Shown here piece by piece: positions 8,421 to 62,405 of a stretch of 64,000 nt of DNA. Both the position numbers and the translations under genes were made by a program. The number at the start of each line of letters is the position of its first letter. The first letter of the stretch is position 1. The DNA is from an uncultured bacterium (GTDB taxonomy: Bacteria > Krumholzibacteriota > Krumholzibacteriia > JAJRXK01). The stretch lies in contig CAZRMV010000010.1 of the NCBI GenBank assembly GCA_964601275.1, positions 70,999 to 134,998 on the forward strand, read 5' to 3'. The notes below the pieces were generated by a model that did no database searches, was not told the DNA's origin, and saw only the letters and a program-made list of their open reading frames with translations.

Positions 8421-8497
8421 CGGGGCGTAGCGCAGCCTGGTAGCGCACCTGCTTTGGGAGCAGGGGGCCGCCGGTTCGAATCCGGCCGCCCCGACCA
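8421..8497 (+). tRNA. tRNA-Pro(TGG)
   Basis: CGGGGCG acceptor stem, anticodon arm CCTGC-TTTGGGA-GCAGG, GGTTCGAATCC, CCA; 77 nt. Confidence 0.97.
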
Positions 8498-15382: not shown

Positions 15383-15589
15383 CGGGGTCACCTTCCTGGA
15401 GAGCAAGGGAGGAGTCGGACCGGCGCGACCGGCCCCAAGCAGGGTACGCCGCCGCTCGCGTCCCACCGCGGCGGCATTTCCACGATCATCATACCCGACC
15501 GGGGGCGTGGTTCCACGGATTTGATGGAGAGTTCTTGCGGCAAGGAACCCTCGTATACTCATTGGAGGGAAATCGAAGGAGGTCCAAGC

Positions 15590-15886
15590 ATGGAGATCAC
15601 CGGCGACATCCAGATCGAGGACCTGGTGAACCAGTGTCCACCCTCGGTCGCGTTGCTGCGGAAGTTCGGTATCCGTTGCATCCAGTGCGGCGAGCCTCTC
15701 TGGGGCACGCTGGCCACGGCGGCCGAGGAGAAGGGCATCACCGATCTCACCCCGATCCTGCAGGCCCTGAGGAAGGAATGTGACCGGGCCGGAGCGGGGG
15801 ATGGGGAGGAGGAGAACCCGAAGATGGATCCGGCAGCTCCCGGATCGTTGACGCCCAAGACCGATGACGAGGCCCCGTCATCGTGA
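15590..15886 (+). CDS. DUF1858 domain protein
   Basis: ITGDIQIEDLV, LRKFGIRCIQCG, TLATAAEEKG; AGGAGG SD. Confidence 0.75.
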   Translation: MEITGDIQIEDLVNQCPPSVALLRKFGIRCIQCGEPLWGTLATAAEEKGITDLTPILQALRKECDRAGAGDGEEENPKMDPAAPGSLTPKTDDEAPSS

Positions 15887-16701
15887 AGATCGCGCTGGTG
15901 CAGCAGTTCGCCTCGGACGACCCCGCCGCCAACCGTCAGAAGGGCCTGGAGGCAGCGCGCCGGGCCGCGGGCAGGGGCGCGGCGGTCATCGGCTTCGCCG
16001 AACTCGCCTTCGATCGTTTCCATCCCCAGAAGCCAGCTTCGACAGACCCCCGCCAACTCGCCGAAACCATTCCCGGTCCCACCACCGAGGCCTTCTCCGC
16101 TCTTGCCCGGGAACTGGGAGTCGTCATCGTCCTGAATCTCTACGAACGCGATGGAGACCATGCCTATGACAGCTCACCGGTCCTCGATGCGGATGGGCGC
16201 ATCCTGGGGGTGACTCGCATGGTGCACATCACCGACTACGCGTGCTTCCACGAGCAGGACTACTACACTCCCGGAGACCGCGGCGCGCCCGTCTACGAGA
16301 CCCGCCACGGCCGTATCGGCGTCGCAATCTGCTACGATCGCCATTACCCCGAGTACATGCGCGCCTTGGCGCTTCACGGCGCCGAGCTGGTCATGGTTCC
16401 CCAGGCGGGCGCGGTGGGGGAGTGGCCCGAGGGACTCTACGAGGCGGAGATGCGGGTGGCGGCGTTCCAGAACGGGTACTTCACCGCCCTCTGCAACCGG
16501 GTGGGAAGAGAAGAGTGTCTCACCTTCGCCGGAGAATCGTTCGTGTGCGACCCGGCGGGTCGGGTGGTGGCCCGGGCGGGCTCGGGAACCGACGAGATCC
16601 TCGTCTGCGAGATCGACCTGGCCGAATCGGAGAACTCCCACGCCCGCCGGCTCTTCCTCCGCGATCGTCGCCCCCGGCTCTATGGAGAATGGTTGGACTG
16701 A
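15883..16701 (+). CDS. Carbon-nitrogen hydrolase (nitrilase superfamily, N-carbamoylputrescine amidase-like)
   Basis: FAELAF (Glu), EQDYYTPGD, GVAICYDRHYPE (Cys), NRVGRE; usual Lys position reads RMVHI. Confidence 0.85.
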   Translation: MKIALVQQFASDDPAANRQKGLEAARRAAGRGAAVIGFAELAFDRFHPQKPASTDPRQLAETIPGPTTEAFSALARELGVVIVLNLYERDGDHAYDSSPVLDADGRILGVTRMVHITDYACFHEQDYYTPGDRGAPVYETRHGRIGVAICYDRHYPEYMRALALHGAELVMVPQAGAVGEWPEGLYEAEMRVAAFQNGYFTALCNRVGREECLTFAGESFVCDPAGRVVARAGSGTDEILVCEIDLAESENSHARRLFLRDRRPRLYGEWLD

Positions 16702-16751
16702 TCCCCCTGGGGTCTTGTTCTACCGGAGCCCCATCCCGGCCGTTGACGTTC

Positions 16752-17858
16752 TCAATCTCCACCCTTTCCGCCCGCGTGGCAACTGATGCAGGGCTGGTTG
16801 TAACCGTGCTTCTGGGCGCGGTCCCAGTGGCACTTCACGCAAAGAGCTCGCTGGCTGGGGGTGGGATAGGGGTTGGGAATGGGATAGGACCCCGAGACCG
16901 CCCCGTCGTCCTGCAGGTAGATGACATTGGGATCCCAGCGGAGGGCGTGGGGAGCGCTCGTGGCATGAGCGCGGTGACAGGTCATGCAGGTGAGCTGGCT
17001 GGTGGCAGAGGCTCCCTCCGTCGAGGAAGTGGTTCGGTTGATGTCCTCCAAGGGAAGTTCGGGAATGTACGCGGTGGCGTAGGCCCCTCCGGTGGGGTCG
17101 TCCTCACCGTTGAAGAGATTGTAGTTGTCTCGCTGCTTGTTGCCCAGTGTCTTGCTGTCTGGATGGTCGAACGGTTGGGATTTGCTCTTGTGATAGGAGC
17201 CATGGCAGTTTCCACACCAGAGCGACCAGCCTTCCTGGTAGGCGGTATGATGGACCACGCTCTCTCCCGCCCCGTCGAGCGCGATGCCTTGAGCCAGCGG
17301 TGCGTTCGTGGTGAAGATGAAACCATCCGGAGTTTCCTGTCCTTGTCCGTAGAGCATGCGGTAGTTGGTGTTGCCGTGGGGGTCATGACAGGAAGGGCAA
17401 CCGAGTTCGCTGGAGGGGTAGGTTCCTCCCGGGGCGACATTGTTGTCGGGATCGGCGAACAAGCCGTAGCCCGGAGCCACGATGCTGTGTCCGGCATGGG
17501 CGCCGGAGACGGGGCCCCCTCCGCCCATACCGCCGCTTCCGTCGAAGATGTCGTCTTCCAACAGGAAGGTGAAGTTGCCGGCGCCTCGTTCCCGAGGTGG
17601 ATTCAGGGGATCATTGCCCAACACCGCCCCCGAGCTGGTGGCGTGGCAGCTCAGGCAGACCTCGCTGCCATTGGCGCCGCGTAGGAGCGCCTCTCCCGTC
17701 GGCCCGAAGGCCGGCACCATGCCGTCCTCGCTTTCGTGCATGATGTGGCAGCCGTTGCAGTGGGCCACTCCGCCTTCATGGAAGGCCGACGCGGCGGGGA
17801 CAACGAGGAGGTTTCCCAGGAAGAAGAGCGGGATCACCCGGGCCAGTTGCTTGAACAT
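16752..17858 (-). CDS. Exported heptaheme c-type cytochrome, OmcS-like
   Basis: Sec signal ending ASA/FH; 7 CxxCH (CNGCH, CLSCH, CPSCH, CGNCH, CMTCH, CVKCH, CISCH); motif order matches recalled OmcS. Confidence 0.85.
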   Translation of the reverse strand: MFKQLARVIPLFFLGNLLVVPAASAFHEGGVAHCNGCHIMHESEDGMVPAFGPTGEALLRGANGSEVCLSCHATSSGAVLGNDPLNPPRERGAGNFTFLLEDDIFDGSGGMGGGGPVSGAHAGHSIVAPGYGLFADPDNNVAPGGTYPSSELGCPSCHDPHGNTNYRMLYGQGQETPDGFIFTTNAPLAQGIALDGAGESVVHHTAYQEGWSLWCGNCHGSYHKSKSQPFDHPDSKTLGNKQRDNYNLFNGEDDPTGGAYATAYIPELPLEDINRTTSSTEGASATSQLTCMTCHRAHATSAPHALRWDPNVIYLQDDGAVSGSYPIPNPYPTPSQRALCVKCHWDRAQKHGYNQPCISCHAGGKGGD

Positions 17859-18097
17859 GGTGGTTCCAGTGGTCGAAGGTGAAGGTCCGTTCGTGACCTG
17901 AACTCGGCGCAATGCCGGAGCGTTCTTACCAGGGCTCGAGAGCCTGGATCAAGAATAGAGGACCCCGCGCACCGGTTCAAGTGGACTCGGCGAGAAGGTC
18001 GCGATTTGTTCCGCGGCATTCGGGGGTGTCGGAGGGTCGGATCGTGGATAATATGGCAGTGGAATGGAGGGTGTTCCCGTTCGATGGAGGGCCGGTC

Positions 18098-18511
18098 ATG
18101 CGCGATACCATCCCGATCTCGACCTCGACGCGTGAAGAATTGGTCGATATCACCGAGGCGGTCCAGGACATCGTCGCCAAGAGCGGCGTTCTCGACGGGC
18201 TGGTGAATGTCTACGCCCACGGATCCACCGGGGCGGTGATGATCCAGGAGAACTGGGACGACTCGGTGCAGACCGACGTGGTGAATCTGTTGAAGAAGAT
18301 GATTCCCCGAGGGGTGTGGTTGCATGATGCACAGGATGGCAACGGCGACGCGCATCTGAAAGCGGGTCTGGTCGGCCCATCCGAGACGATTCCGTTGATC
18401 GGAGGCCGGCTGGGACTGTCGCGGTGGCAGAACATCTTCTTCTGCGAATTCGACGGACCCCGACCACGCCGGGAGATCGTGGTGACGGTGATCCGCGACC
18501 CGGCTGGATGA
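18098..18511 (+). CDS. YjbQ family (secondary thiamine-phosphate synthase) protein
   Basis: ELVDIT, HGSTGAVMIQEN, DGNGDAHLKAGLVG, WQNIFFCEFDGPR. Confidence 0.9.
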   Translation: MRDTIPISTSTREELVDITEAVQDIVAKSGVLDGLVNVYAHGSTGAVMIQENWDDSVQTDVVNLLKKMIPRGVWLHDAQDGNGDAHLKAGLVGPSETIPLIGGRLGLSRWQNIFFCEFDGPRPRREIVVTVIRDPAG

Positions 18512-18571
18512 TCGGTCCGGAGACCCTCGTTGGGGTGCAACCCGGCGGGAGGACCCCGCGGGCGGAACACC

Positions 18572-19384
18572 CTAGGGGCGACTTCCGCGATGCTTCCGGT
18601 TCCGGCGGGTCTTCGCCCACAGCAGGTAACCTGAGAGGACCACCAGCAACCCGAAGGCCGACAGCGCGCGTAGCAGGGGGTTGTTGATATCGTCCCGCCC
18701 GCGGTAGTCCATGGTGTGCAGCATCCAGAGGAAATCGAAGATCCGCCAACTCCGAGTCCGCAGGGTGACCACCTGTCCCTCCCGGGCGGCGACGTAGACG
18801 TGGGCTCTCGACCCGTGGTCGAAGGAGATCTGCCAGGCCGGAAGGGGACCGTCGCGGTATTCGTGCCCGGGGCCCACGTCGGACTCTTCGAGACGACGCA
18901 CCCGGGCGACCTTCGCCTCGGGCTTGAAGGCGGCGCGGGCGAGGGCGATGGCTTCCTCCCGGTCCAGTTCGCCCCGGATGCTTCCGGTGGACACGTCGGC
19001 AAGGAGGGTTTGCCGGGTCTGCTCGTCGTCGATCCAGCGGAGACGGTAGTAGACCCGGTCCAGGATCTCGACCGCCTCGATCGACCTCAACTGGCGCGGT
19101 CTGATCAGTCCCCCGCCTGCGAAGTCGATGGCGTCGGGGGAGACCCACCCGGGCTGGAAAGGGATCGGCTCCGGCTCATTGCGCAGGTGATCTCCATGGA
19201 TCTCGTCCAGGTCGGTCCAGGCGAAGTAGATGCCACTGGCGGTCCACAGGAGGAGCTGGAGGCCGATGACCACGGCGACCAGGCGGTGGAAGCGGCGGAA
19301 ACGGAAGACGGGGATCAAGTGTCCAACCTCCGTGGGGAACGGTCGCCCGTACCGGGGATCGCGTCGCGGGCCGGCAGGGTCCAA
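18572..19384 (-). CDS. PepSY-associated TM / PepSY domain protein
   Basis: FHRLVAVVIGLQLLLWTASG, WRIFDFLWMLHTMDY; true start probably near 19320. Confidence 0.8.
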   Translation of the reverse strand: MDPAGPRRDPRYGRPFPTEVGHLIPVFRFRRFHRLVAVVIGLQLLLWTASGIYFAWTDLDEIHGDHLRNEPEPIPFQPGWVSPDAIDFAGGGLIRPRQLRSIEAVEILDRVYYRLRWIDDEQTRQTLLADVSTGSIRGELDREEAIALARAAFKPEAKVARVRRLEESDVGPGHEYRDGPLPAWQISFDHGSRAHVYVAAREGQVVTLRTRSWRIFDFLWMLHTMDYRGRDDINNPLLRALSAFGLLVVLSGYLLWAKTRRNRKHRGSRP

Positions 19385-20007: not shown

Positions 20008-20084
20008 GCGCCCGTAGCTCAGCCGGATAGAGCATCGGACTTCTAATCCGACGGTCGCAGGTTCGAATCCTGCCGGGCGCGCCA
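20008..20084 (+). tRNA. tRNA-Arg(TCT)
   Basis: GCGCCCG/CGGGCGC acceptor stem, anticodon arm TCGGA-CTTCTAA-TCCGA, GGTTCGAATCC, CCA; 77 nt. Confidence 0.97.
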
Positions 20085-40164: not shown

Positions 40165-40240
<76 letters not shown>

Positions 40241-49681: not shown

Positions 49682-49953
49682 GGAGGATCTCCCCGGGAGG
49701 AAGAGCGGAAACCGGATGCCAGGAACCCGTCCATTCTACCCTACCGGCGCGCGCGGCGCATCTGCTGACTGCCCGGGCCGCCGATTCCGAGGATCTTCGA
49801 GCGGGCCTGGAATCGCCCTCCGGGGTGGAAAACACCACCGGATCGTCTCCCGCAATCCCCACCCGGATCGCCCTCTTGCGTGGCGGCGGCGAAAGACGGC
49901 TGGAAATCCCGGGAAAATGATGGGAATAATCAAGACACGAGGAGGCGATTGCC

Positions 49954-51045
49954 ATGAACGACCCCGGCTCGGCCCGCAGGGGCCGATCGAAGCTTCTGCT
50001 GATGATCCTCCTGATCCTGATCGGGGGGATGGCATCACTGGTGGGGTTTCCGCACGATGTCGAAGCGGCGGAATCCCCGAGCGCGGAACGCCCGGCCTGG
50101 GTGCTGGTGATCCATGGGGGCGCGGGAACCATCCGTCCGGACAAGATCGACCAGCAAACCGAAGAGGCCTACCGCAGCAAGCTGCGCCAGGTGCTGGCAA
50201 CCGGCGCCGCGGTCCTCGATCGCGGAGGCTCCAGCCTGGACGCGGTCGAGGCGGTCATCCGGGAGATGGAGGATTCCCCGCTCTTCAACGCCGGCAAGGG
50301 AGCGGTCTTCACCGCGGCCGGCACCAACGAGATGGATGCCTCGATCATGGACGGTCGCACGCTGGAGGCCGGGGCGGTGGCGGGCGTGAAGACGGTGCGG
50401 CATCCCATCTCGGCCGCGCGCGCGGTCATGGAGCGTTCACCCCACGTGATGCTCGCCGGCGAGGGGGCGGACAGTTTCGCGGCGGCGGAGGGGCTGGAGA
50501 TCGTCTCGCCCGACTATTTCTGGATCGAACGGCGTTGGAAGGACTATCTGCGCCGGAAGCAGGAGATGGAGGAAGAACGCGGGATGGATGGGGGAGAGGG
50601 CGAAGAGCATGGGACGGTGGGTTGCGTGGCCCTCGATCGCAACGGGAACATCGCCGCCGGCACCTCGACGGGTGGGATGACGATGAAGATGTGGGGGAGG
50701 ATCGGCGATTCACCCATCATCGGCGCGGGAACCTATGCCGACAATGCAAGCTGTGGCGTCTCCTGCACCGGCCACGGCGAGTATTTCATCCGGAACGCGG
50801 TCGCCTACGACATCACCGCACTCATGAAGTACAAGGGGCTTCCGCTCGAACAAGCGGCCCAGAACGTGGTCAATGGCAAGCTGAAGAAGCAGGGGGCGGC
50901 GGGAGGAGTCATCGCACTCGATCGGCAAGGCAATGTCTCCATGGTATTCAATACCCCCGGAATGTATCGCGGTTTCCTCAAGGAGGGAGGCGAACCCAGG
51001 GTTTTCCTCTTCGCCGGTGAAGAAGGTCGTTCCGACGGGAAGTAG
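49954..51045 (+). CDS. iaaA: Isoaspartyl peptidase / L-asparaginase (Ntn hydrolase) with signal peptide
   Basis: VIHGGAG, FNAGKG, EMDASIMDG, GTVG (Thr nucleophile), GTSTGG, GRIGDSPIIGAG, CTGHGE. Confidence 0.93.
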   Translation: MNDPGSARRGRSKLLLMILLILIGGMASLVGFPHDVEAAESPSAERPAWVLVIHGGAGTIRPDKIDQQTEEAYRSKLRQVLATGAAVLDRGGSSLDAVEAVIREMEDSPLFNAGKGAVFTAAGTNEMDASIMDGRTLEAGAVAGVKTVRHPISAARAVMERSPHVMLAGEGADSFAAAEGLEIVSPDYFWIERRWKDYLRRKQEMEEERGMDGGEGEEHGTVGCVALDRNGNIAAGTSTGGMTMKMWGRIGDSPIIGAGTYADNASCGVSCTGHGEYFIRNAVAYDITALMKYKGLPLEQAAQNVVNGKLKKQGAAGGVIALDRQGNVSMVFNTPGMYRGFLKEGGEPRVFLFAGEEGRSDGK

Positions 51046-51074: not shown

Positions 51075-51104
51075 GTGTGATTCCGGGTGGTTCCAGGTGT
51101 CCAA
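51075..51104 (+). promoter_or_regulatory. Candidate ECF promoter GTGTGATT-N15-TGTCCAA (copy 1)
   Basis: Identical bipartite motif and spacing recur at 55073..55102. Confidence 0.55.
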
Positions 51105-51711
51105 GCGATCGACATCCAATGGCATCCCCTACCGGAGGCTTTCCGAGGAAAGCCTGCTGCATCGAATCCGTGCCGATGCCGACGGAGAGGAGGACCGCCA
51201 AGCGGCCTCGGAGCTGTTGGGACGGTACCGCCGCCAGGTCTATGTCTGGTGTCATCGCTATCTGCGTGATCATGAGCGCGCGCTCGATCTGAGCCAGGAT
51301 GTGCTCCTGGCGGCCTACCGGGCTATCGGACGCTTCGACGGGCGAAGCAGCATCGGCACCTGGCTCTTCGTCATCGCCCGGAACCGGTGTCTGAACGAGA
51401 TCGACCGCCCGCACCTGCTCCGTGATCCCGAGGTCGACCCGGACAGCTGCACCGCACGCGGTGTGGACCCGGAGGACGAGCTGCTGGAAAAGGAGGACGA
51501 GGAGACGATTCTGGCCCTCATCCGCAAACACCTCGACGAGGTGGAACAGACGGCCCTGTGGATGCGGTGCTTCGAACGGATGCCGGTGGATGTCATCACG
51601 CGGGCTCTCGACTTGAAGGAGAAGGGTGGAGCGCGGGTCACCTTGCAACGCGCCCGCCGGAAGCTGCGGAGAGCCCTCGCCGAACGCGATGCCAAGAAGG
51701 ATGCGTCATGA
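51097..51711 (+). CDS. ECF sigma-70 factor
   Basis: ALDLSQDVLLAAY, FDGRSSIGTWLFVIARNRC, region 4 ARVTLQRARRKL; start may be CTG 51154. Confidence 0.9.
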   Translation: MSKRSTSNGIPYRRLSEESLLHRIRADADGEEDRQAASELLGRYRRQVYVWCHRYLRDHERALDLSQDVLLAAYRAIGRFDGRSSIGTWLFVIARNRCLNEIDRPHLLRDPEVDPDSCTARGVDPEDELLEKEDEETILALIRKHLDEVEQTALWMRCFERMPVDVITRALDLKEKGGARVTLQRARRKLRRALAERDAKKDAS

Positions 51712-52346
51712 ACCACCAATGCCTTCCGATGGAAGAACTGGAGAAGATCCCGGCCCTCTCTTCGGACGATCCCCGGCGGATCGACGCGGAACGGTGTCCG
51801 CGGTGCGCAGCCCGGCTGGCCGCCCTGCGGCTCTTCAACGATCTGTCCCGGCCCGCCCCCGGGGCCGACCCAGAAGACGCCGAGCGTCGCCTGAAGGAGT
51901 TGCTGGCTCCCGGCCGCCTGCCGCGAAACGGCCGGCGTCGTATCCTCTCCCGCCGCTGGTGGCTCCTGGTGCCGGCCGCGGCGGTGGTGTTGCTGATGTT
52001 CGTTCTGCCCCGGGACGCTTCCAAGCATGCTTCTCCCCCCGTGTTGCGGGGGGAAACGCAACTTTCCTCCGCGCTCCCCCGGGGCGAAGGTGGTTGGACG
52101 GCCGACGGCAGTCTCGACCTGAGCTGGCCGCCCTTCGACGGCGCGGAGCAGGTGGAGGTGGTGTTCTTTGCCCTGGATCTGGCGGAGATCGCCCGCGTTC
52201 CCGCTCCGGATGGAACCAGTCTCCATCTCGAGGCCGCGGACCTGCCGCCGACGCTGCGGCAGCGGAAGGCCGTTTTCTGGTCGGCGATTGCGATCGGAGA
52301 GGGACATCCGATCGGGCGCACCGCCCGTCAACTCCTGGAACAATGA
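51708..52346 (+). CDS. Putative membrane anti-sigma factor
   Basis: ATGA overlap with sigma; CPRC Zn-like motif, single TM (WWLLVPAAAVVLLMFVL), C-terminal extracytoplasmic domain. Confidence 0.7.
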   Translation: MNHQCLPMEELEKIPALSSDDPRRIDAERCPRCAARLAALRLFNDLSRPAPGADPEDAERRLKELLAPGRLPRNGRRRILSRRWWLLVPAAAVVLLMFVLPRDASKHASPPVLRGETQLSSALPRGEGGWTADGSLDLSWPPFDGAEQVEVVFFALDLAEIARVPAPDGTSLHLEAADLPPTLRQRKAVFWSAIAIGEGHPIGRTARQLLEQ

Positions 52347-55078
52347 GGCGTTCCGGCCGGGTGGACCGTACCGCGCTCAAACTCTTCGGCCTGGCGCTGT
52401 TCTGCGCGGTTCTCGTGGATGGGGCAAGCTTCGCCTCCCCGGCGGGTACATCGAAACCCCGCCAGGATCTGCTGGCCGAAGTGGACAGTCTCTGGACGAA
52501 CGGCTTCCACGATGAGGCCCTGCGGCGGACAGAGCAGATCTGTGGACACGCCCGCGCCCTCGGTGATTCGTCGACCCTGGCCCTGTTCCTGGTCCAGCGG
52601 GGCGCCCAGTTGCTCTCGATGGGGAAGGCTTCCGCCGCCGAACCGCTCTTGAGGGAGGGCCTCAAGATCTCCTCCGCCCTGGGCGACTCCCTTCTCGCTT
52701 GTCGAACCCGCCGGTGGTTGAGTGTGAGCGTGGGTGCGCTCGGCCGTCGCGAAGAGGCGCGGCGGCTCTACGATGAGCTGCTCGGTTGCGCGCGGTCCTT
52801 GGGTCAGAAGGGTCTGCAGGGTTGGGCCCACGTGGGCATGGCCTGGGACGAGGCCCAGCTCGGGGACTATTCCTCATCGGAGCACCATTACGAGGAGGCG
52901 GTGCGGCTGTTCCAGGACGCGGGCGAGATCGATGGACAAGCCTGGGCGCTGAACGGTCTCACCATCGCCCGGCGCAACCAGGGAGACCTCGACGAAGCGC
53001 GCGCCGGATATCAGAGAGCGCTTCAGCTCGCCCATGAGCATGGAGTGGACATGGTGGAGGGCATGGCCTTGAACAACCTGGCCAACCTGGAGTGGACGGT
53101 GGGGGATCCCGGGCGGGCCATGGAAGGTTTTGCCCGGGCGGCCGCCTTCCAATCCAGGAGAGGCCGTTACCGCGAAGCCATCATCCCCCGGATCAACCTC
53201 GCGTACTGCCTGGCCGAACTGGGTGACGTTGTCGCGGCGCGGGACACCCTGCGGGCCTGCCTGGAGGAAAGCCAGGAGCTGTCGGCCCCGGACCTCGAGT
53301 CGATGGCTTGGGAGAGCCTGGGTCGGCTCAGCCTGAAGCAGGGGGAATGGGGCGAGGCGGCGGCACTCTTCCGGAAAGCGCTCCAGAGAGGGGAGGGTCT
53401 CCAGTTCGAGGCGGTTCGGAACAGCCTGCTGGGCCTGAGCACCGCGCTGGCCCGGCGGGACAGCAGCCGGACCGCGCTCGAGGTGCTCGAGATGGGGCAG
53501 AGCTGGTGCCACCTGGGAGGGGAGGTCGCCTTCTGCGCCCGTCTCGAACTGGCCTGGGGTCGGCGACTGCTCGAACTCGAGGAGCTTGTCGAGGCGGCCC
53601 GCCACTTCGAGCGGGCGGACAGCATTGCCGCGGCCGGTGGCGTCCAGCAACTGCGGGTGGCCGCATTGACCTCACTCGCGGAGGACCTGGAGAAACTGGA
53701 CCGTCCCGCGGAAGTCGAGAAGGTTCTCGACCGGGCGGTGGAGGTGTGGGAGGCCGAACGCGGCCTGCCGATGGATCCGGACTGGAGAAGTCTGCGGGGG
53801 GCCCAGGGTCGCCGGCTGTTCACCGACCTGGCGGCGTTCTGGATTCTCCGTCCCCGGGGAGCGGAAAAGGCGTTCGATGTGTTGCAGCGTTACAAGGGGC
53901 GGGGGCTCTTGGAACGCCTGCGGGGCCCCGACGCGACCGGCGACGGTGGGGAGCTGGAGACCGTCGACGCGGCGGACTTGCGCACCAAGGTGCTCCGACC
54001 GGGAGAGATCCTTCTCGACGTGTACCTGGGACCGGAACACTCGGTGTTGTTCGCGGTCGATCGCAAGGAATGTCGCGCCTGGCTCCTGCCGCCGGAAGAC
54101 GACCTGGAACCGCGCATCTCCCGCCTGGGAGAGGAATTGTTCCAGCCCCAGGGAGCGATTCCTCCCGAGCTCTTCGAAGAGATCGCGGCTGCCCTGGCCG
54201 GTGAACTCTTCGGTCCCATCCTCAATGAGCTTCCCTCCTGTTCGAGTGTGCTGTTCTCGCCCGATGGCGTGCTCAATCTCCTGCCCCCCGCGCTGTTCGA
54301 GAAACCCGGTGGGCCCCGTTGGTCCCGCATTCCCTCGGCCGGGGTGCTCGCATTCCTGCGGAACGGCGAGGGTGCGACGGAACGCACCGGTCGGCGGCCG
54401 AGGTCCGAAACCGAGCTGCTGATCCTGTCGGCCGGCCGGCGGTCCGATGGGGTTCTCCTGCCCGGGGCACAACGGGAAGGCCGTTGGCTGGCGGACCACT
54501 TCGCCGGAGTGGAGTTCTTCCAACCCTTGGATCCGACCCGATCCGCCGAGATCCTGCATGTCGCCGCCCACACCATCGCGGACGACCGCCGGCCGTGGCG
54601 GTCTCGCATCGTGCTCGACCAGGGGCCCGATCTCACCGCCCGGAAGTTGATGGAGGAGAAACGCCCCATCCGGCTCGCGGTCCTGGCCAGTTGCGGGTCG
54701 GCCACCGGACGAACCCTCTCGGGGGAAGGGGTCCAGAGCCTCTCCACCGCGCTGCTGGCCGGGGGAGCCGGAGCGGTGGTCGCGACCCTCTGGCCGGTGG
54801 AGGACGAGGCCACCTTCGCATTCATGCGGCGTTTCTACCGCGAGATGGCCGACGGCGTCGCCGCCGGGGAGGCGTTGCACCGGGCCCAGGAGTCCTTCCG
54901 GCGGTCGAGGGACCGGGCCCAACCCTTCTACTGGGCCGCCTTTGTCCTGGAGGGGGAGCCCGGACTCCGGGTCGACCTCCACCGGAAGGCCTCCGGTCTC
55001 CGGTGGCTCCTTCCCGCTGCCATCCTGTTCGTCCTCCTTCTCTACCTTTCGGTGAGGATTCTTCGACGCCGCGTGTGA
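52343..55078 (+). CDS. TPR-CHAT (caspase-like) protease, exported with C-terminal TM
   Basis: Signal peptide; TPRs (AWALNGL, MALNNLANL); FSPDGVL, LHVAAH, VLASC, GEGVQSL, VVATLWPV, PFYWAAFVLEG; C-terminal TM. Confidence 0.9.
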   Translation: MRRSGRVDRTALKLFGLALFCAVLVDGASFASPAGTSKPRQDLLAEVDSLWTNGFHDEALRRTEQICGHARALGDSSTLALFLVQRGAQLLSMGKASAAEPLLREGLKISSALGDSLLACRTRRWLSVSVGALGRREEARRLYDELLGCARSLGQKGLQGWAHVGMAWDEAQLGDYSSSEHHYEEAVRLFQDAGEIDGQAWALNGLTIARRNQGDLDEARAGYQRALQLAHEHGVDMVEGMALNNLANLEWTVGDPGRAMEGFARAAAFQSRRGRYREAIIPRINLAYCLAELGDVVAARDTLRACLEESQELSAPDLESMAWESLGRLSLKQGEWGEAAALFRKALQRGEGLQFEAVRNSLLGLSTALARRDSSRTALEVLEMGQSWCHLGGEVAFCARLELAWGRRLLELEELVEAARHFERADSIAAAGGVQQLRVAALTSLAEDLEKLDRPAEVEKVLDRAVEVWEAERGLPMDPDWRSLRGAQGRRLFTDLAAFWILRPRGAEKAFDVLQRYKGRGLLERLRGPDATGDGGELETVDAADLRTKVLRPGEILLDVYLGPEHSVLFAVDRKECRAWLLPPEDDLEPRISRLGEELFQPQGAIPPELFEEIAAALAGELFGPILNELPSCSSVLFSPDGVLNLLPPALFEKPGGPRWSRIPSAGVLAFLRNGEGATERTGRRPRSETELLILSAGRRSDGVLLPGAQREGRWLADHFAGVEFFQPLDPTRSAEILHVAAHTIADDRRPWRSRIVLDQGPDLTARKLMEEKRPIRLAVLASCGSATGRTLSGEGVQSLSTALLAGGAGAVVATLWPVEDEATFAFMRRFYREMADGVAAGEALHRAQESFRRSRDRAQPFYWAAFVLEGEPGLRVDLHRKASGLRWLLPAAILFVLLLYLSVRILRRRV

Positions 55079-55102
55079 TTTCCCCGCGCCCGGTCTGTCC
55101 AA
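55073..55102 (+). promoter_or_regulatory. Candidate ECF promoter GTGTGATT-N15-TGTCCAA (copy 2)
   Basis: Overlaps the CHAT stop; 75 nt upstream of ATG 55178. Confidence 0.6.
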
Positions 55103-55177
55103 CGAATCGCAGGCGCCCGTCCTGGGGGCTTTCCGCTGATCCTGGATACCTGGCTTACCTATCTCTGGGGGACCATC

Positions 55178-58100
55178 ATGTCACGCACCCGCCATGCTCT
55201 CTGGATTCTGTCCTTTGTCCTGTTCCTGGTGGTCAACGCGCCGGGGGCCCATGCCCAGCAGCTCAGCCCCGAATACTGTGTCGCCAACACCGTTCTTCCC
55301 TGGGGCTACCAGGCCTGGCAATCCCAGAGAACCTGGATGGGAATCGCGGTATCTCCGCAGAACCCCGCCCAGAGCGTCTACCTGGAGGTGTTGCAGGGGA
55401 ACAGCTTCGCCGACACCACCGCCTACTCGCCCCCGGTCGTTTCGACCTATTCCAACGGGACCAACTTCCTGTTGAAGGATTTCGCGACCGCGAGTGATCA
55501 GTGGACCCTGGCCAAGGCCTGGAACCCGGGCTTGGGCAACCTGGGGCACACCGTGGAGTGGGACCCGGGGCAGGGCGCCTTGGTCGCGGGAACGGCGCCC
55601 ACCTACAACTACGGTGGACTGGCCGGCGGATGCGGCATGATCCGGGTGTTCAAGGTCGCGCTCACCGCGGGTGAGACCTACCATTTCCACTTGACCAGCA
55701 CCCAGACCAACGACGATGTGCGCATGGGCCTGTTCTGGTCGGGAAGCCTGCCGGACGGTTGGGTGACGCGGAGCGACGCGCTGTTCGAGAGGCCGGCCGA
55801 TCCCAGCGGTTCCACCGCCTACGAGAGTTTCACCGCCACCCACACCGGAAACCACGCCCTGGTCGTCTTCGTGAACGACCTGACCGCCGCCGGAGGCCAG
55901 TACACGGTTTCCTTCGAGCCATACACGGCCCCGCCGAACCAACCCGATCTCGTGGTGACCTCGATCCTGCCCGTTACGGCGACCCAGGGAACCGTGGTGA
56001 CGGCGACGATCCAGGTGGCGAACCAGGGAACCGCGGACGCTGCCGCATGCGTGACCGAGGTCACCCTCGATGGCTCGGTGACCTGCGCCACCATCACCAC
56101 CCCGGCGCTCGCGGCCGGGACATCGACCTCGATCCAGTGTGTACTGGGGACTCCCGCCTTGGGCGCCCATACCATCGGCGCCACCGTGGACCCCACGAAC
56201 GTGGTGAACGAGGCGGACGAGACCAACAATTTCCACAGCAACACCCTGAACATCCTCAGCCCCTCCCTTCCCGATCTGGTGATCACCCGGGTCATGCCTG
56301 ATACCGCCGTACCCAACCAACCGGTGTGGGTCTCGGTGGTCGTGTACAACAACGGGAGCCTGGACGCCCCGGCGTGCACCACCCTCTACAGCGTAGACAA
56401 CGGAGCGGTCACCGTATCGATCGCCACCCCCGCCATTCCAGCAGGGGGGAACACCATCGTCAGCGACTTCCTGCCCGCCCTTTCCGAGGGAACGCACGCG
56501 GTGGTGGCCACGGTCGACAACGGGAACGTTGTGACCGAGGCGAACGAGTCGAACAACAGCCTGGCCCACACCATCGTGGCCCAGGGGCCCAACCTGGTGA
56601 TCGATTCGATCTCTCCGACCACGGTCTACGGAAATGCCGCGCCGAACTTCCAGATCGTCGTCAAGAACACCGGGACGGTGGACACCGGGGATACCTATAC
56701 GCGACTGCAGGTCGATGGGGCGGACGAATGCACATCCATCGCCACCGGTCCCGTCCCGGCCGGAGGAACCCTCACCGTCACCTGTCCCGGATCGACGCTC
56801 ACCCCGGGGACCCATACGGTGACCGCGATCGCAGATGTCAGCCGCCGGGAACTGGAGAGCGATGAAACCGACAACACCCTGACGGTCACCGTGGAGATGA
56901 TTCCCACCTCCACCGTCGTCTATGCGGACGGGTCAGGCTACTACGCCACCATCCAGGAGGCGATCGACGCCATGCCGGCCGGCGGGGAGATCCTGCTGGT
57001 GGGCGGCACCGTCTACAGCGGGCCGGGCAATCGCGATCTCGATTTCGGTGGCAAGGACCTGTCGATCGTCGCGGCCTTCGGAGGCGGCGCGACCATCGAC
57101 TGTGGAGGCGATCCCGCCCAGGCGCACCGGGCCTTCAATTTCCATTCCGGCGAGACCAACGCCGCGAGGGTTCAGGGCCTCATCATCATCAATGGATGGT
57201 ACGAATACGGGGCGGGGGGTGGCATTCTCATCACCGACGCCGAACCGACGATCCAGGATTGCCTCATCCGCAACTGCACGGCCGACGTGGGCGGCGCGCT
57301 GGCGTTCTCGTCATCGGCCAGCTACTACCATCCCCAGATCGTGGGATGTACGATCGTGGGCAACCACGGGAATACCCTTGCTGCCGCGGTCTACCTGGAG
57401 AAGAACAGCGCACCGGTGTTCACCCGTTGCCTGATCACCGGCAACAGCAGCTACTACGGCCCGGTGTCCTGCGACCCCTACCTCGGAACTCCCCAACCCG
57501 TATTCACCTGCAGCGACATCTGGGGGAACAACGGAGGGGATTGGACCGACTGCATCAGCGGACAACTGGGTGTGGACAACAATTTCAGCCAGGACCCCCT
57601 GTTCTGCGACCCGGCCAACAACGTCTATACCCTGGCGTCGAACTCGCCCTGCTCCTCAACGGTGAACGGCACCTGTAGCCGGATCGGGGCCTACGACGCC
57701 GCGTGCGGCCCGCTGGGGGGCACCATTCGTCATGTGAAGGCGGACGGTAGCGGCGAGTACCTCACCATACAGCACGCGATCAACAACAGCGTTGACGGAG
57801 ATATCATCGAACTGGCCGATGGGGTCTACGTCGGCACCGGAAACACCGACGTCAATACCCTGGGACTGAAGATCGTGATCCGGTCCGCGAGCGGCGACTC
57901 GTCCGCCTGCCGCATCGACGCCCAGAATGCCCACCGGGGTTTCGTCTTCGACCACGGGGAGACCCCCGAGACCACGATCCAGGGGATCGGGGTGGTCAAC
58001 GGATCGAACGCGAACGGGGCCGCGATCTACTGCCAGGGTTCGTCTCCCACGCTCCTGAATCTCTATCTTTCCGGCAACAACGCATCCGGCGACGGCGGCG

Positions 58101-60217
58101 GTCTCTACTGCACCGGATATGCTTCGCCGGTGGTCGAGAACTGTTTCTTCGAGAACAACACGGCGGTCGACGACGGTGGCGGACTCTATGCCTACAACTG
58201 GTCTTCTCCGACAGTACGGAACTGCCGTTTCGTCGGAAACACCGCGGTCGACCGGGGTGGTGGGGCCGTCTTCAGCGTGAACTCCTTTCCCGTGGTCGAG
58301 AACTGCACCTTCCAGTCGAACCAGGCGGTGAATGGTGGCGGTTTGATCTTCGTGTACGCCTACGGCCCGGTCACCAATTGCGTGTTCCAGAGCAATACCG
58401 GGGACTATGGTGGCGCGGTCCAGTGCTATGGGAACGCCCATGCGGACTTCATCGACTGCACTATGAACGACAATGCGGCGGCCCAGGGAGCCTGTGTCTA
58501 CATGCGGGCGAATTCCTCGCCGACCTTCCAGTCATGTATCCTCGCGTTCGGCCGCAACGGTGCGGCATTCGACCGCTACGCGGCCGACTGCAACCCCGTT
58601 CTCAGCTGCACCGATGTCCATGGGAACGCCCTGGGCGATTGGGGGCCGATCATCTCCTCCCAACTGGGGGTCAACGGGAATTTCAACGCCGATCCCCTGT
58701 TCTGTGACCGCGTAGGCGGCAACCTCACTCTCCGGGGCGACTCGCCCTGCGCCGCGGTGAACAATGTCGGATGCGGCCAGGTCGGCGCGTTGGGGGTCGG
58801 GTGCAGCGGAAAGTGGCTGGTTCGGCCGGATGGAACCGGCGACTTCGCCACCATCCAGGAGGCGATCGACGCCGCGGTGGCGGGAGAAACGGTGGTGCTC
58901 GCCGACGGGGTCTTCACCGGCACGGGGAACCGTGACATCGACTTCCGGGGGAAGGAGATCACCGTTCGTTCCCAGAGCGGGGATTCGACCCAGTGCATCA
59001 TCGACTGCCAGGCCAGCGCCACCGATTCGCATCGGGGCTTCGTCATGATCAGCGGGGAGACCAACAATTCGGTCCTGGAGAGAGTCACCATCCGCAACGC
59101 CTACCGGACCTACGGAGCGGCGATGCGGATCGACAACGCTTCCCCCGTGATCCGGGGGGTGATCTTCAGCGGATGCCAAGGAGGCAATGGCGGAGGCATC
59201 CTCATGGGCAATGGCGCCGCTCCGATCATCGAGGACTGCATTTTCGAGAACAACGTCGTCAGCGACGCCGGCGGAGGCATCTACGTGAACGCGAGTTTCC
59301 CCCAGATCTCCCGTTGCGTCTTCCGGGGCAACAGCGCCACCTGGGGGGGAGGAGCGGTCTACCATCAGCATGCGGCGCCGAATTTCGCCGATTGCCACTT
59401 CGAGAACAACAGTTCCGAGCACTGGGGAGGGGCGGTCCACAACCGGTATTCCGAGAGCGCGCCCCACTTCAACAACTGCCTGTTCACCGGGAATACGGCT
59501 CCCCAGGGAGGAGCGGTCTACGGGCGGGATGGAAGCTATCCCTCGTTCACGGCCTGCACCTTCAGCGGCAACTCTTCGGCGGACGGTTCCGCCTTCCACC
59601 TGCGGTCCGCGTCCGGAGTCTCGATCATCCGCTCGATCCTGGCCTTCGCCCCTGAGGGCGCGGCATTGACCAGCGACGGGACGGCGACGGTGCAGATCTA
59701 TTGCTCAGACGTCTACGGCAACGCCGGAGGCGACTGGATCGGGGATCTCGGGGGGCAGTTGGGCAGCAACAACAACTTCTCGTTGAACCCGTCGTTCTGC
59801 GACCAGTACGCCGGCGATTTCACCCTGGCCAGCAACTCACCCTGTCTTCCGGTCCACAACCCGTGCAATCTGCAGGTGGGGGCCTTCGGCCAGGGTTGTG
59901 TCGCAACCGAGGTGCCGGAGACCCCCCGGCGCGTTCCGAGCGAGCTCGTGCTCGAGCCGAACGTCCCCAACCCCTTCAATCCACGGACGACGATCTTCTT
60001 CTCGGTTCCGGACGAGGGGGACGTGAAGGTGTCGATCTACGGGATCGACGGCCGCCGAATCACCACTCTGCTGACCGGGGTCGTGGGACCGGGCCGCCAC
60101 CAGGTGGTGTGGACCGGGACCGACGATCAAGGTCGGCAGGTCGCTTCGGGAGTCTACCTGGTGCGGGTCGAAGCAAAGGGGGAGTCCAGGGTGCGCAAGC
60201 TCGCCCTGGTCCGGTGA
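55178..60217 (+). CDS. Large secreted protein: CARDB x3, three parallel beta-helix modules, FlgD-Ig CTD
   Basis: Signal peptide; PDLVV/PDLVI/PNLVI...E..E.NN repeats; three modules starting ADGSG/PDGTG..TIQ.AI; PNVPNPFNP...WTGTDDQG...SGVY. Confidence 0.88.
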   Translation: MSRTRHALWILSFVLFLVVNAPGAHAQQLSPEYCVANTVLPWGYQAWQSQRTWMGIAVSPQNPAQSVYLEVLQGNSFADTTAYSPPVVSTYSNGTNFLLKDFATASDQWTLAKAWNPGLGNLGHTVEWDPGQGALVAGTAPTYNYGGLAGGCGMIRVFKVALTAGETYHFHLTSTQTNDDVRMGLFWSGSLPDGWVTRSDALFERPADPSGSTAYESFTATHTGNHALVVFVNDLTAAGGQYTVSFEPYTAPPNQPDLVVTSILPVTATQGTVVTATIQVANQGTADAAACVTEVTLDGSVTCATITTPALAAGTSTSIQCVLGTPALGAHTIGATVDPTNVVNEADETNNFHSNTLNILSPSLPDLVITRVMPDTAVPNQPVWVSVVVYNNGSLDAPACTTLYSVDNGAVTVSIATPAIPAGGNTIVSDFLPALSEGTHAVVATVDNGNVVTEANESNNSLAHTIVAQGPNLVIDSISPTTVYGNAAPNFQIVVKNTGTVDTGDTYTRLQVDGADECTSIATGPVPAGGTLTVTCPGSTLTPGTHTVTAIADVSRRELESDETDNTLTVTVEMIPTSTVVYADGSGYYATIQEAIDAMPAGGEILLVGGTVYSGPGNRDLDFGGKDLSIVAAFGGGATIDCGGDPAQAHRAFNFHSGETNAARVQGLIIINGWYEYGAGGGILITDAEPTIQDCLIRNCTADVGGALAFSSSASYYHPQIVGCTIVGNHGNTLAAAVYLEKNSAPVFTRCLITGNSSYYGPVSCDPYLGTPQPVFTCSDIWGNNGGDWTDCISGQLGVDNNFSQDPLFCDPANNVYTLASNSPCSSTVNGTCSRIGAYDAACGPLGGTIRHVKADGSGEYLTIQHAINNSVDGDIIELADGVYVGTGNTDVNTLGLKIVIRSASGDSSACRIDAQNAHRGFVFDHGETPETTIQGIGVVNGSNANGAAIYCQGSSPTLLNLYLSGNNASGDGGGLYCTGYASPVVENCFFENNTAVDDGGGLYAYNWSSPTVRNCRFVGNTAVDRGGGAVFSVNSFPVVENCTFQSNQAVNGGGLIFVYAYGPVTNCVFQSNTGDYGGAVQCYGNAHADFIDCTMNDNAAAQGACVYMRANSSPTFQSCILAFGRNGAAFDRYAADCNPVLSCTDVHGNALGDWGPIISSQLGVNGNFNADPLFCDRVGGNLTLRGDSPCAAVNNVGCGQVGALGVGCSGKWLVRPDGTGDFATIQEAIDAAVAGETVVLADGVFTGTGNRDIDFRGKEITVRSQSGDSTQCIIDCQASATDSHRGFVMISGETNNSVLERVTIRNAYRTYGAAMRIDNASPVIRGVIFSGCQGGNGGGILMGNGAAPIIEDCIFENNVVSDAGGGIYVNASFPQISRCVFRGNSATWGGGAVYHQHAAPNFADCHFENNSSEHWGGAVHNRYSESAPHFNNCLFTGNTAPQGGAVYGRDGSYPSFTACTFSGNSSADGSAFHLRSASGVSIIRSILAFAPEGAALTSDGTATVQIYCSDVYGNAGGDWIGDLGGQLGSNNNFSLNPSFCDQYAGDFTLASNSPCLPVHNPCNLQVGAFGQGCVATEVPETPRRVPSELVLEPNVPNPFNPRTTIFFSVPDEGDVKVSIYGIDGRRITTLLTGVVGPGRHQVVWTGTDDQGRQVASGVYLVRVEAKGESRVRKLALVR

Positions 60218-60353: not shown

Positions 60354-61292
60354 TCACTTTCCTTCCACGTTCTTGAGATACCGGTAGAAATCACCCTCGG
60401 TCGAAAGCAACAGGAGGGTCTGGGCGTCGATGGTGTTCTCGTAGCTCTTCATCGTCTGCAGGAACTCGAAGAAGCTGCGGGATTCATCGGAACGATCATA
60501 GGCCCTCGCGTAGATCGTGGTGGCCTCGGCGTCGGCCCGGCCCTTGATCTCCTGGGCCTTGCGGTAGGCCTCCGATCGGATCCGCAGCAGCTCACGGTCC
60601 TTCTCTCCGCGGATGCGGGACGCTTCTCCTTCGCCTTCACTGCGGAAGCGGTCCGCAATACGTTTCCGCTCGGCGATCATCCTCTCGTAGACCTTCTTCT
60701 GGACCTGTTCGACGTAATTGATGCGCTTGAATTCGACGTCGAGGATCTCGATGCCCAGGTCCTGGGTTCGCGACCGGGCGTTCTTGAGCACCTCGTTGCG
60801 CACGGTATCGCGCCCGTAGGTGATCGGCGCCAAACGATTCTGGTCCTCCGGAAGGGTGTTCCCCTCGTTGGGAGTCCGATTGGTGCTGCGAACGACTTCG
60901 ACCAGGTCGTACTTGGCGATGGCGTTGCGGGTCTCGCCGTCGAGGATGTCATCGAGCCGGGTCTGTGCACCCCGCTCATCGCGGAGACGTTGGAAGTAGA
61001 GGAGTGGATCGGTGATGCGCCACCGCGCGTAGGTATCCACCCAGATGAATCGCTTGTCCTTGGTGGGGAGCTGGTTCGCATCGCCGTCCCACTCGAGGAA
61101 ACGTTTCTCGAAGCGGTGGACCTTCTGGATGAAGGGAATCTTCAACTTGAGTCCGGGGGTGTTGATCGGGTCACCGACCGGCTTGCCGAACTGGGTGATG
61201 ATCACCTGTTCGTACTCCCTGACCGTGTAGAACGGGTTGGCGATGGTCAGAACGATGATGGCGGCGATCAAGATGATGATGGGGCGCATCAC
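60354..61292 (-). CDS. hflC: Protease modulator HflC
   Basis: ITQFGKPV, PGLKLKIPFIQ, VYERMIAERKRIA..FRSEG, FFEFL. Confidence 0.93.
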   Translation of the reverse strand: MMRPIIILIAAIIVLTIANPFYTVREYEQVIITQFGKPVGDPINTPGLKLKIPFIQKVHRFEKRFLEWDGDANQLPTKDKRFIWVDTYARWRITDPLLYFQRLRDERGAQTRLDDILDGETRNAIAKYDLVEVVRSTNRTPNEGNTLPEDQNRLAPITYGRDTVRNEVLKNARSRTQDLGIEILDVEFKRINYVEQVQKKVYERMIAERKRIADRFRSEGEGEASRIRGEKDRELLRIRSEAYRKAQEIKGRADAEATTIYARAYDRSDESRSFFEFLQTMKSYENTIDAQTLLLLSTEGDFYRYLKNVEGK

Positions 61293-62302
61293 CGACCACC
61301 TCCTTTCGTGTCGGCCGGGCTCGGGGCGCCGGCCCCTTGCAGGTTCAGGAGAGGAAGGATGCCCTCGATCGCGTCATCGATCACGATCTTGCGTTCCACC
61401 TTGGGCAGGACCCGGTTCATGGTCTCCAGGTAGATGCGCCGACGCGTGACGTCGGGAGCCTTCCGGTATTCCTCGAAGAGGGAAGTGAAACGGGAGGCGT
61501 CACCCTGGGCCCGGTTCACCCGGTCGAGAGCGTAACCCTCGGCTTCCTGGATCGTCTGCTGGGCCTCGCCCTTGGCGCGTGGAATGACCTTGTTGTATTC
61601 GCTCTGAGCGACGTTGATCAACCGCTCCCGCTCCTGCTGGGCCTGGTTGACCTCGTTGAAGGACGACTTGACCGGATCGGGCGGATTGACGTCCTGCAAG
61701 ACGACCTGTTCGATCTTGATGCCGGTTTCGTACTGGTTGCACAGTTCCTGGAGCCGTTTGTCCACTTCCGAAGCCACTTCGGCACGACCCACCGTCAGCA
61801 CTTCATTGACCAGGCGGTCGCCGATGACGCTGCGCATCACCGCCTCACTCATGTCGCGCAGGGTTTCGTCGACATTGCGGACGCGGAAAAGATACTTGTA
61901 GGGTTCGACGATGCGGTACTGGATGACCCATTCCACAACGGCCGCGTTGAGATCGCCGGTGAGCATGTTCGATTCGCCGGCGTAACCGCGCGTGGTGAAC
62001 TGGCTCTTGACCCCGGCGCTGAGAGTGCGAAAGCCGAATTCAGCCTTCAATTGACGCTGGATCGGCACCTTCAGGGCGGTCTCCACCCCGAAAGGAATCT
62101 TGAAGTGGAGACCCGGATCGGCGGTGCGGACGTACTTGCCGAAGCGCAGGACCAAGGCCACCTCTTCCGGATCGACGGTATAGAAACTCGTGGAGAAGAA
62201 GATCAGGGCGAGCAGGATGACCACGATGGTGCGGAAGATGTTGCCCGTGATGGGATTGCGGGGCATCCGGCTCCGGATTTCCTCGAAGACCTCATCGGTC
62301 AT
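61289..62302 (-). CDS. hflK: FtsH protease activity modulator HflK
   Basis: VLRFGKY, PGLHFKIPF, MLTGDLN, LQDVNPPDPV..SFNEV, VTRRRIYLETM. Confidence 0.93.
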   Translation of the reverse strand: MTDEVFEEIRSRMPRNPITGNIFRTIVVILLALIFFSTSFYTVDPEEVALVLRFGKYVRTADPGLHFKIPFGVETALKVPIQRQLKAEFGFRTLSAGVKSQFTTRGYAGESNMLTGDLNAAVVEWVIQYRIVEPYKYLFRVRNVDETLRDMSEAVMRSVIGDRLVNEVLTVGRAEVASEVDKRLQELCNQYETGIKIEQVVLQDVNPPDPVKSSFNEVNQAQQERERLINVAQSEYNKVIPRAKGEAQQTIQEAEGYALDRVNRAQGDASRFTSLFEEYRKAPDVTRRRIYLETMNRVLPKVERKIVIDDAIEGILPLLNLQGAGAPSPADTKGGGR

Positions 62303-62405
62303 GGCGGATTCTCCTTCGAAGCGGTGAGACTCCCCGGGATCTCTTCCTGAGGGAGCGGGCACACGATGAAGGATACAGACGGATCGCCAGAGGCGACACC
62401 GTAAA

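Follow-up and report, generated by a model that had tools for sequence, protein, structure and literature searches.

An identical bipartite motif as probable promoter connecting an ECF sigma factor gene with a secreted-protein gene in an uncultured Krumholzibacteriota bacterium

Two copies of an identical bipartite motif occur on the forward strand of a 64,000-nucleotide stretch of contig CAZRMV010000010.1 (positions 70,999 to 134,998; assembly GCA_964601275.1), which derives from an uncultured bacterium of the Krumholzibacteriota and is referred to here as the window. One copy lies at the start of a gene for a sigma factor of the extracytoplasmic function (ECF) type, the other upstream of a gene for a secreted protein. 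We consider it highly probable that the two sites are copies of one promoter and are read by RNA polymerase in complex with the ECF sigma factor of this locus (51097-51711), which would link this sigma factor to the gene for the secreted protein. Such elements are ordinary; they belong to the class of ECF autoregulatory and target promoters, here with a -35 element that is specific to the group. What is unusual is that the first copy lies on top of the start codon of the sigma gene itself.

Copy 1 (P-sigma, 51075..51104, forward strand) consists of GTGTGATT at 51075-51082 and TGTCCAA at 51098-51104, and copy 2 (P-target, 55073..55102, forward strand) has the same two blocks, GTGTGATT at 55073-55080 and TGTCCAA at 55096-55102. 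In both copies 15 nt separate the blocks, with only 3 of these 15 spacer positions identical, and ATCG (51108-51111 and 55106-55109) comes exactly 3 nt after the second block. An earlier note on this DNA had described an identical motif with constant spacing, differing spacers and a nearby ATCG, and direct reading of the sequence confirms all of this. The boxes of copy 1 are -35 (GT)GTGATT, with its core at 51077-51082, and -10 (T)GTCCAA, with its core at 51099-51104; the cores of copy 2 are at 55075-55080 and 55097-55102, and 16 nt lie between the cores in either case. Copy 1 is situated within a 51-bp gap 3' of an asparaginase gene, and its -10 overlaps GTG 51097, the start assigned by the gene caller, an overlap that had also been noted correctly. 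Copy 2 ends (55102) 75 nt 5' of the ATG of the secreted-protein gene (55178), and the TGA stop codon (55076-55078) of the preceding gene, which encodes a TPR-CHAT protein, is embedded in its -35 box (GTG[TGA]TT).

The pair is not expected by chance. When up to two mismatches were allowed, a pattern search found only these two sites in the window, while 0.06 would be expected from shuffled sequences and none of 100 shuffles contained two or more matches. As the mismatch pattern was derived from the data themselves, an independent test was added in the form of a position weight matrix (PWM) trained on 46 related loci, with the window and the syntenic loci L083 and L085 left out. In the 64 kb, on either strand, the two copies are the two top-ranking sites (24.0 for copy 2 and 20.6 for copy 1); the next site scores 13.8, and 20 Markov shuffles reached 18.3 at most. 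The next-best sites (62599 on the forward and 19935 on the reverse strand, both 13.8) were considered as further regulon members in the window and rejected, as they lie inside the shuffle noise. Neither sequence reading nor the PWM scan revealed a second ECF-type copy upstream of copy 1.

The motif is conserved at orthologous loci, a check that the earlier note had proposed and whose failure would have spoken against a promoter. The sigma factors of the syntenic Eisenbacteria loci L083 and L085 are 71% and 69% identical to that of the window, the gene order is the same (asparaginase, sigma factor, anti-sigma factor, TPR-CHAT protein, CARDB protein), and the motif is kept at both positions. The sigma sites read TGTGATT-N15-aTGTCCAA-acgATCG in L083 and TGTGATT-N15-aTGTCGAA-gaaATCG in L085. 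Where the window has one secreted CARDB protein, L083 has two tandem CARDB/beta-helix paralogs (14264-19309 and 19453 onward), each preceded by GTGTGATT-N15-TGTCCAA or TGTCCTA, and in L085 two motif copies are found 5' of the CARDB gene, so that every orthologous target gene in these loci is preceded by the motif. In a four-way alignment of the regions upstream of the sigma gene (window, L083, L085 and, at 60% identity, L087), the invariant intergenic columns are GTGA and TGTC-AA, while the spacer and flanks have diverged.

A wider comparison was based on 160 related loci fetched from genomes and metagenomes. Where the sigma factor is at least 41% identical to that of the window, 54 of 67 loci have a site with a PWM score of at least 12 at the 5' end of the sigma gene, and the family consensus is GTGAyT-N16-GTCyhA. 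When information content was profiled with the loci aligned on the -35, three elements stood out and nothing else: (T)GTGAT(T), (c)GTCyhA 16 nt further on, and ATG(A) starting 4 nt past the hexamer; farther upstream there was no conservation. The motif is absent (PWM of at most 8.7) from 37 control loci with sigma factors of at most 37% identity (Acidobacteriota, Proteobacteria and others), and because it is lost in these more distant relatives it tracks this sigma clade. In the data fetched, the sigma family is confined to Eisenbacteria, Krumholzibacteriota and similar metagenome-assembled genomes (MAGs); a literature search on Eisenbacteria sigma factors returned nothing relevant. Four acidobacterial relatives (L032, L044, L151 and L160), which form a neighbouring sigma clade, have GTTCCG-N17-CGTCTCA with an ATG about 5 nt later; the -10 and the near-leaderless spacing are the same, and the -35 is different.

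In a scan of both strands of 753 kb of related loci, the extra sites scoring at least 16 were nearly all on the sense strand (3 were antisense) and typically lie just 3' of the anti-sigma gene or the CHAT gene. The genes behind them encode proteins with signal peptides and varied passengers, e.g. FG-GAP, and a FlgD_ig/Por_Secre_tail C-terminal domain was present in 6 of the 9 tested. The family thus has a copy of the motif at the sigma operon and further copies at targets, conserved in the orthologs. At two target promoters (L011, 14986, and L098, 5067) an in-frame ATG occurs 4 nt after the -10, and the signal peptide of the protein, which carries a type IX secretion system (T9SS) tail, begins about 36-39 codons later.

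Sigma site and target site also vary together. Over the 17 loci with at least two sites, the identity between sigma site and target site averages 14.5 of 19 positions within a locus and 12.2 between loci (permutation p=5e-5), and for the -10 block alone it is 7.1 vs 5.5 of 10 positions (p=5e-5). Rare -10 variants are common to the sites of one locus: GCCCAA in L010, GACTCA in L022, GTTTCA in L116 and in L118, ATCyCT in L018 and GACAyA in L119. Such co-variation would be expected if the sigma factor of each locus reads both of its sites. It is the strongest non-experimental argument available for a cognate promoter, and it argues against recognition by a generic regulator. PWM ranking, conservation in orthologs, sense orientation and co-variation together lend good support to the proposal of the earlier note that the motif is the cognate ECF promoter tying the sigma factor to its target.

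The -10 GTC core and the 16-nt spacer fit the general architecture of ECF promoters (PMC6061681). The (C)GT(C) core is represented by GTCCAA in the window and, over the 46 training sites, by G in 41, T in 40 and C in 45, the preceding base being mostly C; the spacer is 16 nt in both window copies and 16 (occasionally 15 or 17) in the 46 training relatives. An AAC core in the -35 is typical of many ECF promoters. The autoregulated promoters of E. coli sigmaE, B. subtilis sigmaW and M. xanthus DdvS (the last being GTAA-n16-CGT; PMC6061681) resemble the pair described here in having a bipartite -35/-10 structure, a spacer of about 16 nt and a GTC/CGT core in the -10, and those systems likewise have a copy at the sigma operon, more copies at nearby targets, and a co-transcribed membrane anti-sigma factor after the sigma factor. 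They differ in that the -35 of the window is (T)GTGATT without the AAC core, and the -10 in this lineage lies over the sigma start codon.

Several points weigh against our interpretation. The -35, (T)GTGAT(T) with TGA invariant in 46 of 46 sites, is a group-specific variant that departs from the AAC core. A -10 over the sigma start codon fits poorly with classical positive autoregulation. The dependence on this sigma factor is drawn from co-location, conservation and co-variation, and a paralogous ECF sigma factor of the same specificity, encoded elsewhere in the genome, could read the sites, as relatives carry several modules per genome; the PWM scan of this genome covers 64 kb. Finally, the case for read-through into the sigma gene (see below) consists of a missing terminator match and conserved synteny.

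The sigma gene (51097..51711, forward strand) encodes 204 aa when read from GTG 51097. The product matches Pfam Sigma70_r2 (E=4e-17) and TIGR02937 (79.4 bits against a cut-off of 42.9), and its profile aligns with the structures of AlgU, sigmaE and SigW. With regions 2 and 4, a length of about 200 aa and a score above the family threshold it has the make-up of an ECF sigma factor, region 4 being weak in Pfam (E=0.0037) but aligning across the AlgU and sigmaE structures. None of the NCBIfam equivalogs matched above its cut-off. Trp51-Cys52 and Arg157-Cys158 are invariant in the family and Cys98 nearly so (C52, C98 and C158 in the window); conserved cysteines in both the sigma2 and the sigma4 domain are unusual for ECF sigma factors and might have a redox or metal role.

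The distance between promoter and start codon is short in this family. An in-frame start lies between -1 and +5 nt after the -10 hexamer in 41 of 54 loci, and at exactly 4 nt in 27. As this spacing leaves no room for a leader, the family would as a rule produce leaderless sigma mRNAs whose first codon is the start codon. A precedent is the P2 promoter of M. tuberculosis sigE, which is SigE-dependent and gives a leaderless sigE mRNA (PMC10027907), similar to the arrangement predicted for the 27-41 relatives. The window deviates from the norm and lacks the P2-like arrangement: TCG (51109-51111) stands at the in-frame place where most relatives have ATG, no ATG, GTG or TTG occurs between the -10 and the conserved (S/T)D/E-E motif, and GTG 51097 is the only canonical start. 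Eight loci have this arrangement (the window, L087, L088, L093, L094, L101, L013 and L113), and in L083 and L085 a start also lies inside the -10, with an additional downstream in-frame TTG (+25) in the former and ATG (+13) in the latter. The start-in-promoter arrangement is found on several branches of a neighbour-joining tree, and the promoters of the loci that lack a start downstream of the -10 are not degenerate, with scores higher and not lower than those of the others (median PWM 21.1 vs 18.1).

From where, then, is the sigma factor translated in the window? The earlier note had placed the true start at CTG 51154, after GAGGAA. This proposal is not supported, as the CTG is the codon for Leu20, a near-invariant residue of helix 1, the conserved part of the protein already starts before it, and the region aligning with the solved ECF structures (AlgU, sigmaE) starts at about residue 14-16 (family positions 13-15). 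GAGGAA codes for Glu17-Glu18 of the conserved (S/T)-D/E-E motif. In a more general form the idea is that the promoter is real but that translation of the sigma factor on copy-1 transcripts begins farther downstream, at a non-canonical codon (e.g. ATC 51124, or CTG 51154/51157), GTG 51097 being an artefact of the gene caller produced by the TG of the -10. A transcription start past the -10 would keep GTG 51097 out of the copy-1 mRNA, the motif often has a T ahead of GTC, from which an xTG readily arises, and L085 and L083 do have the in-frame downstream starts just mentioned. There are also parallels in other bacteria: in M. tuberculosis, sigE P3 lies inside the open reading frame, and translation of the resulting mRNA begins at two non-canonical codons (PMC10027907), and in M. 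xanthus an annotated ATG coincides with a DdvS-dependent transcription start site (PMC6061681). Like sigE P3, copy 1 lies within the open reading frame and would give an mRNA without the main start; P3, however, is read by SigH and its short isoforms have been shown experimentally, whereas the window has no evident alternative start and the comparison from our side is sequence-based. Against a downstream start stand the lack of any ATG, GTG or TTG before the (S/T)D/E-E motif, the loss of residues aligning with helix 1 of solved ECF sigma factors that a start at CTG 51154 would entail, the coding role of GAGGAA as a conserved Glu-Glu, and the presence of CTC in L087 at the codon equivalent to CTG 51154. 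Moreover, the eight loci share no downstream start position, and in-promoter starts are enriched in exactly these loci: where no start follows the -10, an in-frame start at most 20 nt upstream of the hexamer end is present in 8 of 9 loci, compared with 11 of 41 others (Fisher p=0.001). Because of this enrichment we lean towards GTG 51097 as the real start, used on transcripts that come from upstream, and regard translation from a downstream codon as possible but rather unlikely.

If the two sites are cognate promoters, the sigma4 domain would read the -35 (T)GTGATT and the sigma2 domain the -10 (T)GTCCAA, 16 nt downstream. The predicted transcription starts lie about 4-7 nt past the -10, near 51108-51111 (the ATCG that follows copy 1 on the forward strand) and 55106-55109. 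Indirect support for a start this close to the -10 comes from 27 relatives whose in-frame ATG lies at a constant 4 nt from it. Copy 2 would drive a single-gene unit, with a leader of about 70 nt that is predicted to be unstructured and a Shine-Dalgarno sequence of its own, and copy 1 would head an operon of sigma factor, anti-sigma factor and TPR-CHAT protein. As the -10 of copy 1 covers the only canonical start of the sigma gene, copy-1 transcripts should be unable to encode the annotated N-terminus. Full-length sigma factor would then be made from transcripts that start upstream and read through the asparaginase gene, and copy 1 would mainly serve the genes for the anti-sigma factor and the TPR-CHAT protein, each with initiation signals of its own. 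In addition, an N-terminally shortened sigma factor may be made from copy-1 transcripts at a non-canonical codon. The membrane anti-sigma factor, which is CHCC/zinc-binding anti-sigma (ZAS)-like, presumably restrains the sigma factor. By analogy to DdvA of M. xanthus, the sigma factor may be released after a signal in the periplasm in which the TPR-CHAT protease takes part. This wiring, with the sigma factor supplied by read-through and copy 1 feeding the inhibitor and sensor genes, is the most likely one but unproven, and we infer its transcription start sites, sigma dependence, translation starts and the roles of the anti-sigma and CHAT proteins from sequence; the motif itself, with its conservation, specificity, orientation and co-variation, and the gene content are shown by the data.

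The asparaginase gene (49954-51045, forward strand) lies upstream of copy 1, in a syntenic arrangement that L083 and L085 share. At 24 nt before its ATG is a match to a sigma70-like promoter (TGGAAA-18-AATAAT, 49901-49930), and no terminator-like site was matched between the asparaginase and sigma genes. This match is a possible source of read-through transcripts containing GTG 51097. A sigma70-type promoter just 5' of GTG 51097 was looked for as well and discarded, as the gap contains none and the only match is the one that precedes the asparaginase gene. The sigma GTG is in frame with the TAG of the asparaginase gene, at a distance of 17 codons.

The anti-sigma gene and the TPR-CHAT gene follow the sigma gene, each overlapping the gene before it by ATGA. 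An AAGGA box lies 6 nt upstream of the ATG of the first (51708..52346, forward strand, 212 aa), which encodes a putative single-pass anti-sigma factor with the pattern C5...D26xxxC30xxC33 and one transmembrane helix around residues 113-130. Throughout the family of genes that follow the sigma gene, C30 and C33 do not vary and at least 90% of members have C5 and H26, which gives C...HxxxCxxC followed by one transmembrane helix; in the window, Asp26 replaces the His ligand of the family. A match in NCBIfam was weak (E=1.8e-4), nothing significant was found when 29 family members were compared with Pfam (including zf-HC2) or when the full-length protein and its N-terminal 75 aa were compared with PDB profiles, and an AlphaFold2 model from the single sequence was poor (pLDDT 51). 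Position, topology, ligand pattern and the weak NCBIfam match make an anti-sigma factor the probable product of this gene.

The TPR-CHAT protein (52343..55078, forward strand, 911 aa) matches Pfam CHAT (E=2.7e-41) and TPR families. Its sequence reads as an N-terminal signal peptide and a C-terminal transmembrane anchor with an RRRV tail, on the basis of which the bulk of the protein is predicted to be periplasmic. A sequence search of the PDB gave generic TPR matches only, with no DdvA, separase or Craspase. In all eight relatives tested (L008, L010, L029, L094, L107, L108, L113 and L120), a TPR-CHAT gene whose product has the same C-terminal anchor has its TGA stop within the -35 of the promoter of the sigma gene. 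The order in those relatives is CHAT followed by sigma, and in the window it is sigma, anti-sigma, CHAT, target. As judged from these loci, a TPR-CHAT gene constantly accompanies this sigma family; it usually precedes the sigma gene, but in the window it follows it.

A different reader of the motif has also to be considered, either a paralogous ECF sigma factor encoded elsewhere or a DNA-binding regulator that contacts half-sites two helical turns apart. The genomes of relatives hold several paralogous modules with a very similar consensus (L026 and L028 are from one MAG, and L016, L027 and L034, listed as three MAG bins, carry one sample identifier, MFD05942), and the link between the motif and the adjacent sigma factor is comparative, not biochemical. 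However, the rare -10 variants co-vary within loci, the orientation is strictly that of the sense strand, and the motif vanishes along with divergence of the sigma sequence. Furthermore, the fixed 4-nt distance to the start in 27 loci fits a transcription start site, not an operator, and the two boxes are neither a palindrome nor a direct repeat. We therefore consider another reader to be quite unlikely.

It is extremely improbable that the repeat is non-regulatory and due to chance, local duplication or coding: although copy 1 overlaps annotated sigma codons 1-3 (N-terminal Met-Ser-Lys) and copy 2 the last CHAT codons and stop, 0.06 matches were expected against two observed, the spacers agree at too few positions (3 of 15) for a duplication, the coding contexts of the two copies differ, the -10 is non-coding and upstream of the ATG in most relatives, and the independent PWM ranking and the conservation in orthologs contradict it.

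Among the closest known systems is that of M. xanthus DdvS and DdvA. DdvA is a transmembrane anti-sigma factor with a cytoplasmic CHCC zinc domain and a periplasmic TPR-CHAT region; it is the only characterised anti-sigma factor with a periplasmic TPR-CHAT, and DdvA-like proteins have been reported only in Myxococcota and one Comamonas (PMC11506125). The systems are alike in that an ECF sigma factor is followed by a single-pass anti-sigma factor (C...HxxxCxxC), a periplasm-facing TPR-CHAT is present and local promoters are sigma-dependent, as predicted in our case. They differ in that the anti-sigma factor (212 aa) and the TPR-CHAT protein (911 aa) of the window are separate proteins and not one polypeptide, in the Asp that replaces the His ligand in the window anti-sigma factor, for which no PDB chain was matched by sequence, and in the targets, which in the window family are T9SS-type secreted proteins and not CBASS/CRISPR. 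The module looks like a split DdvA, and would be a functional analogue at best and not a member of that group. Another association of a TPR-CHAT protease with an ECF sigma factor is the Craspase of type III-E CRISPR systems, where the TPR-CHAT protein Csx29 cleaves Csx30, which controls an ECF sigma factor (PMC10028731). The CHAT domain of the window has a weak NCBIfam match to Csx29 (E=1.8e-4, far below the cut-off), but Craspase is cytoplasmic and RNA-guided, whereas the window has no CRISPR genes and its CHAT protein is predicted to be periplasmic.

These results provide a testable promoter consensus, TGTGATT-N15/16-GTCyhA, and a probable sigma-to-target link for an ECF family of uncultured bacteria of the FCB superphylum, tied to T9SS-type secreted proteins. 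They also correct a tempting re-annotation of the sigma gene to a CTG start, and indicate that gene callers systematically put sigma start codons inside the -10 in this family. We regard as moderately novel the leaderless sigma mRNA as a norm, which the fixed 4-nt spacing between -10 and ATG suggests for the family as a whole, the lineages with the start in the promoter, and the split TPR-CHAT/anti-sigma module. The recurrent module of sigma factor, anti-sigma factor and TPR-CHAT protein, with the CHAT stop codon in the -35, may extend the DdvA system, by analogy, to a split architecture in another phylum. It is tempting to go further, and we do so tentatively, with more doubt than confidence: a split DdvA module, consisting of an ECF sigma factor, a small CHCC anti-sigma factor and a separate periplasmic TPR-CHAT protease, might be widespread in Eisenbacteria and Krumholzibacteriota and control T9SS cargo, with the sigma factor mostly made from a leaderless, self-transcribed mRNA, while in several lineages a promoter over the start codon might leave negative feedback only, the sigma factor being supplied by read-through.

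The target gene (55178..60217, forward strand) encodes a secreted protein of 1679 aa, as indicated by its signal peptide, domain matches and orthologs. The protein has three CARDB domains, parallel beta-helix/PMP repeats and a FlgD_ig/Por_Secre_tail (T9SS-type) C-terminal domain. It is followed by two overlapping HflK/HflC-like (band-7) genes on the reverse strand (60354-62362), and since these are convergent with it, the target is taken as a one-gene unit. The fold of the leader region (55106-55190) is weaker than that of its shuffles (z=+2.2), and an Rfam scan of the window found no RNA family in the target leader. The same scan identified three tRNA genes elsewhere in the window (8421-8494, 20008-20081 and 40165-40237), which are unrelated to the promoter pair.

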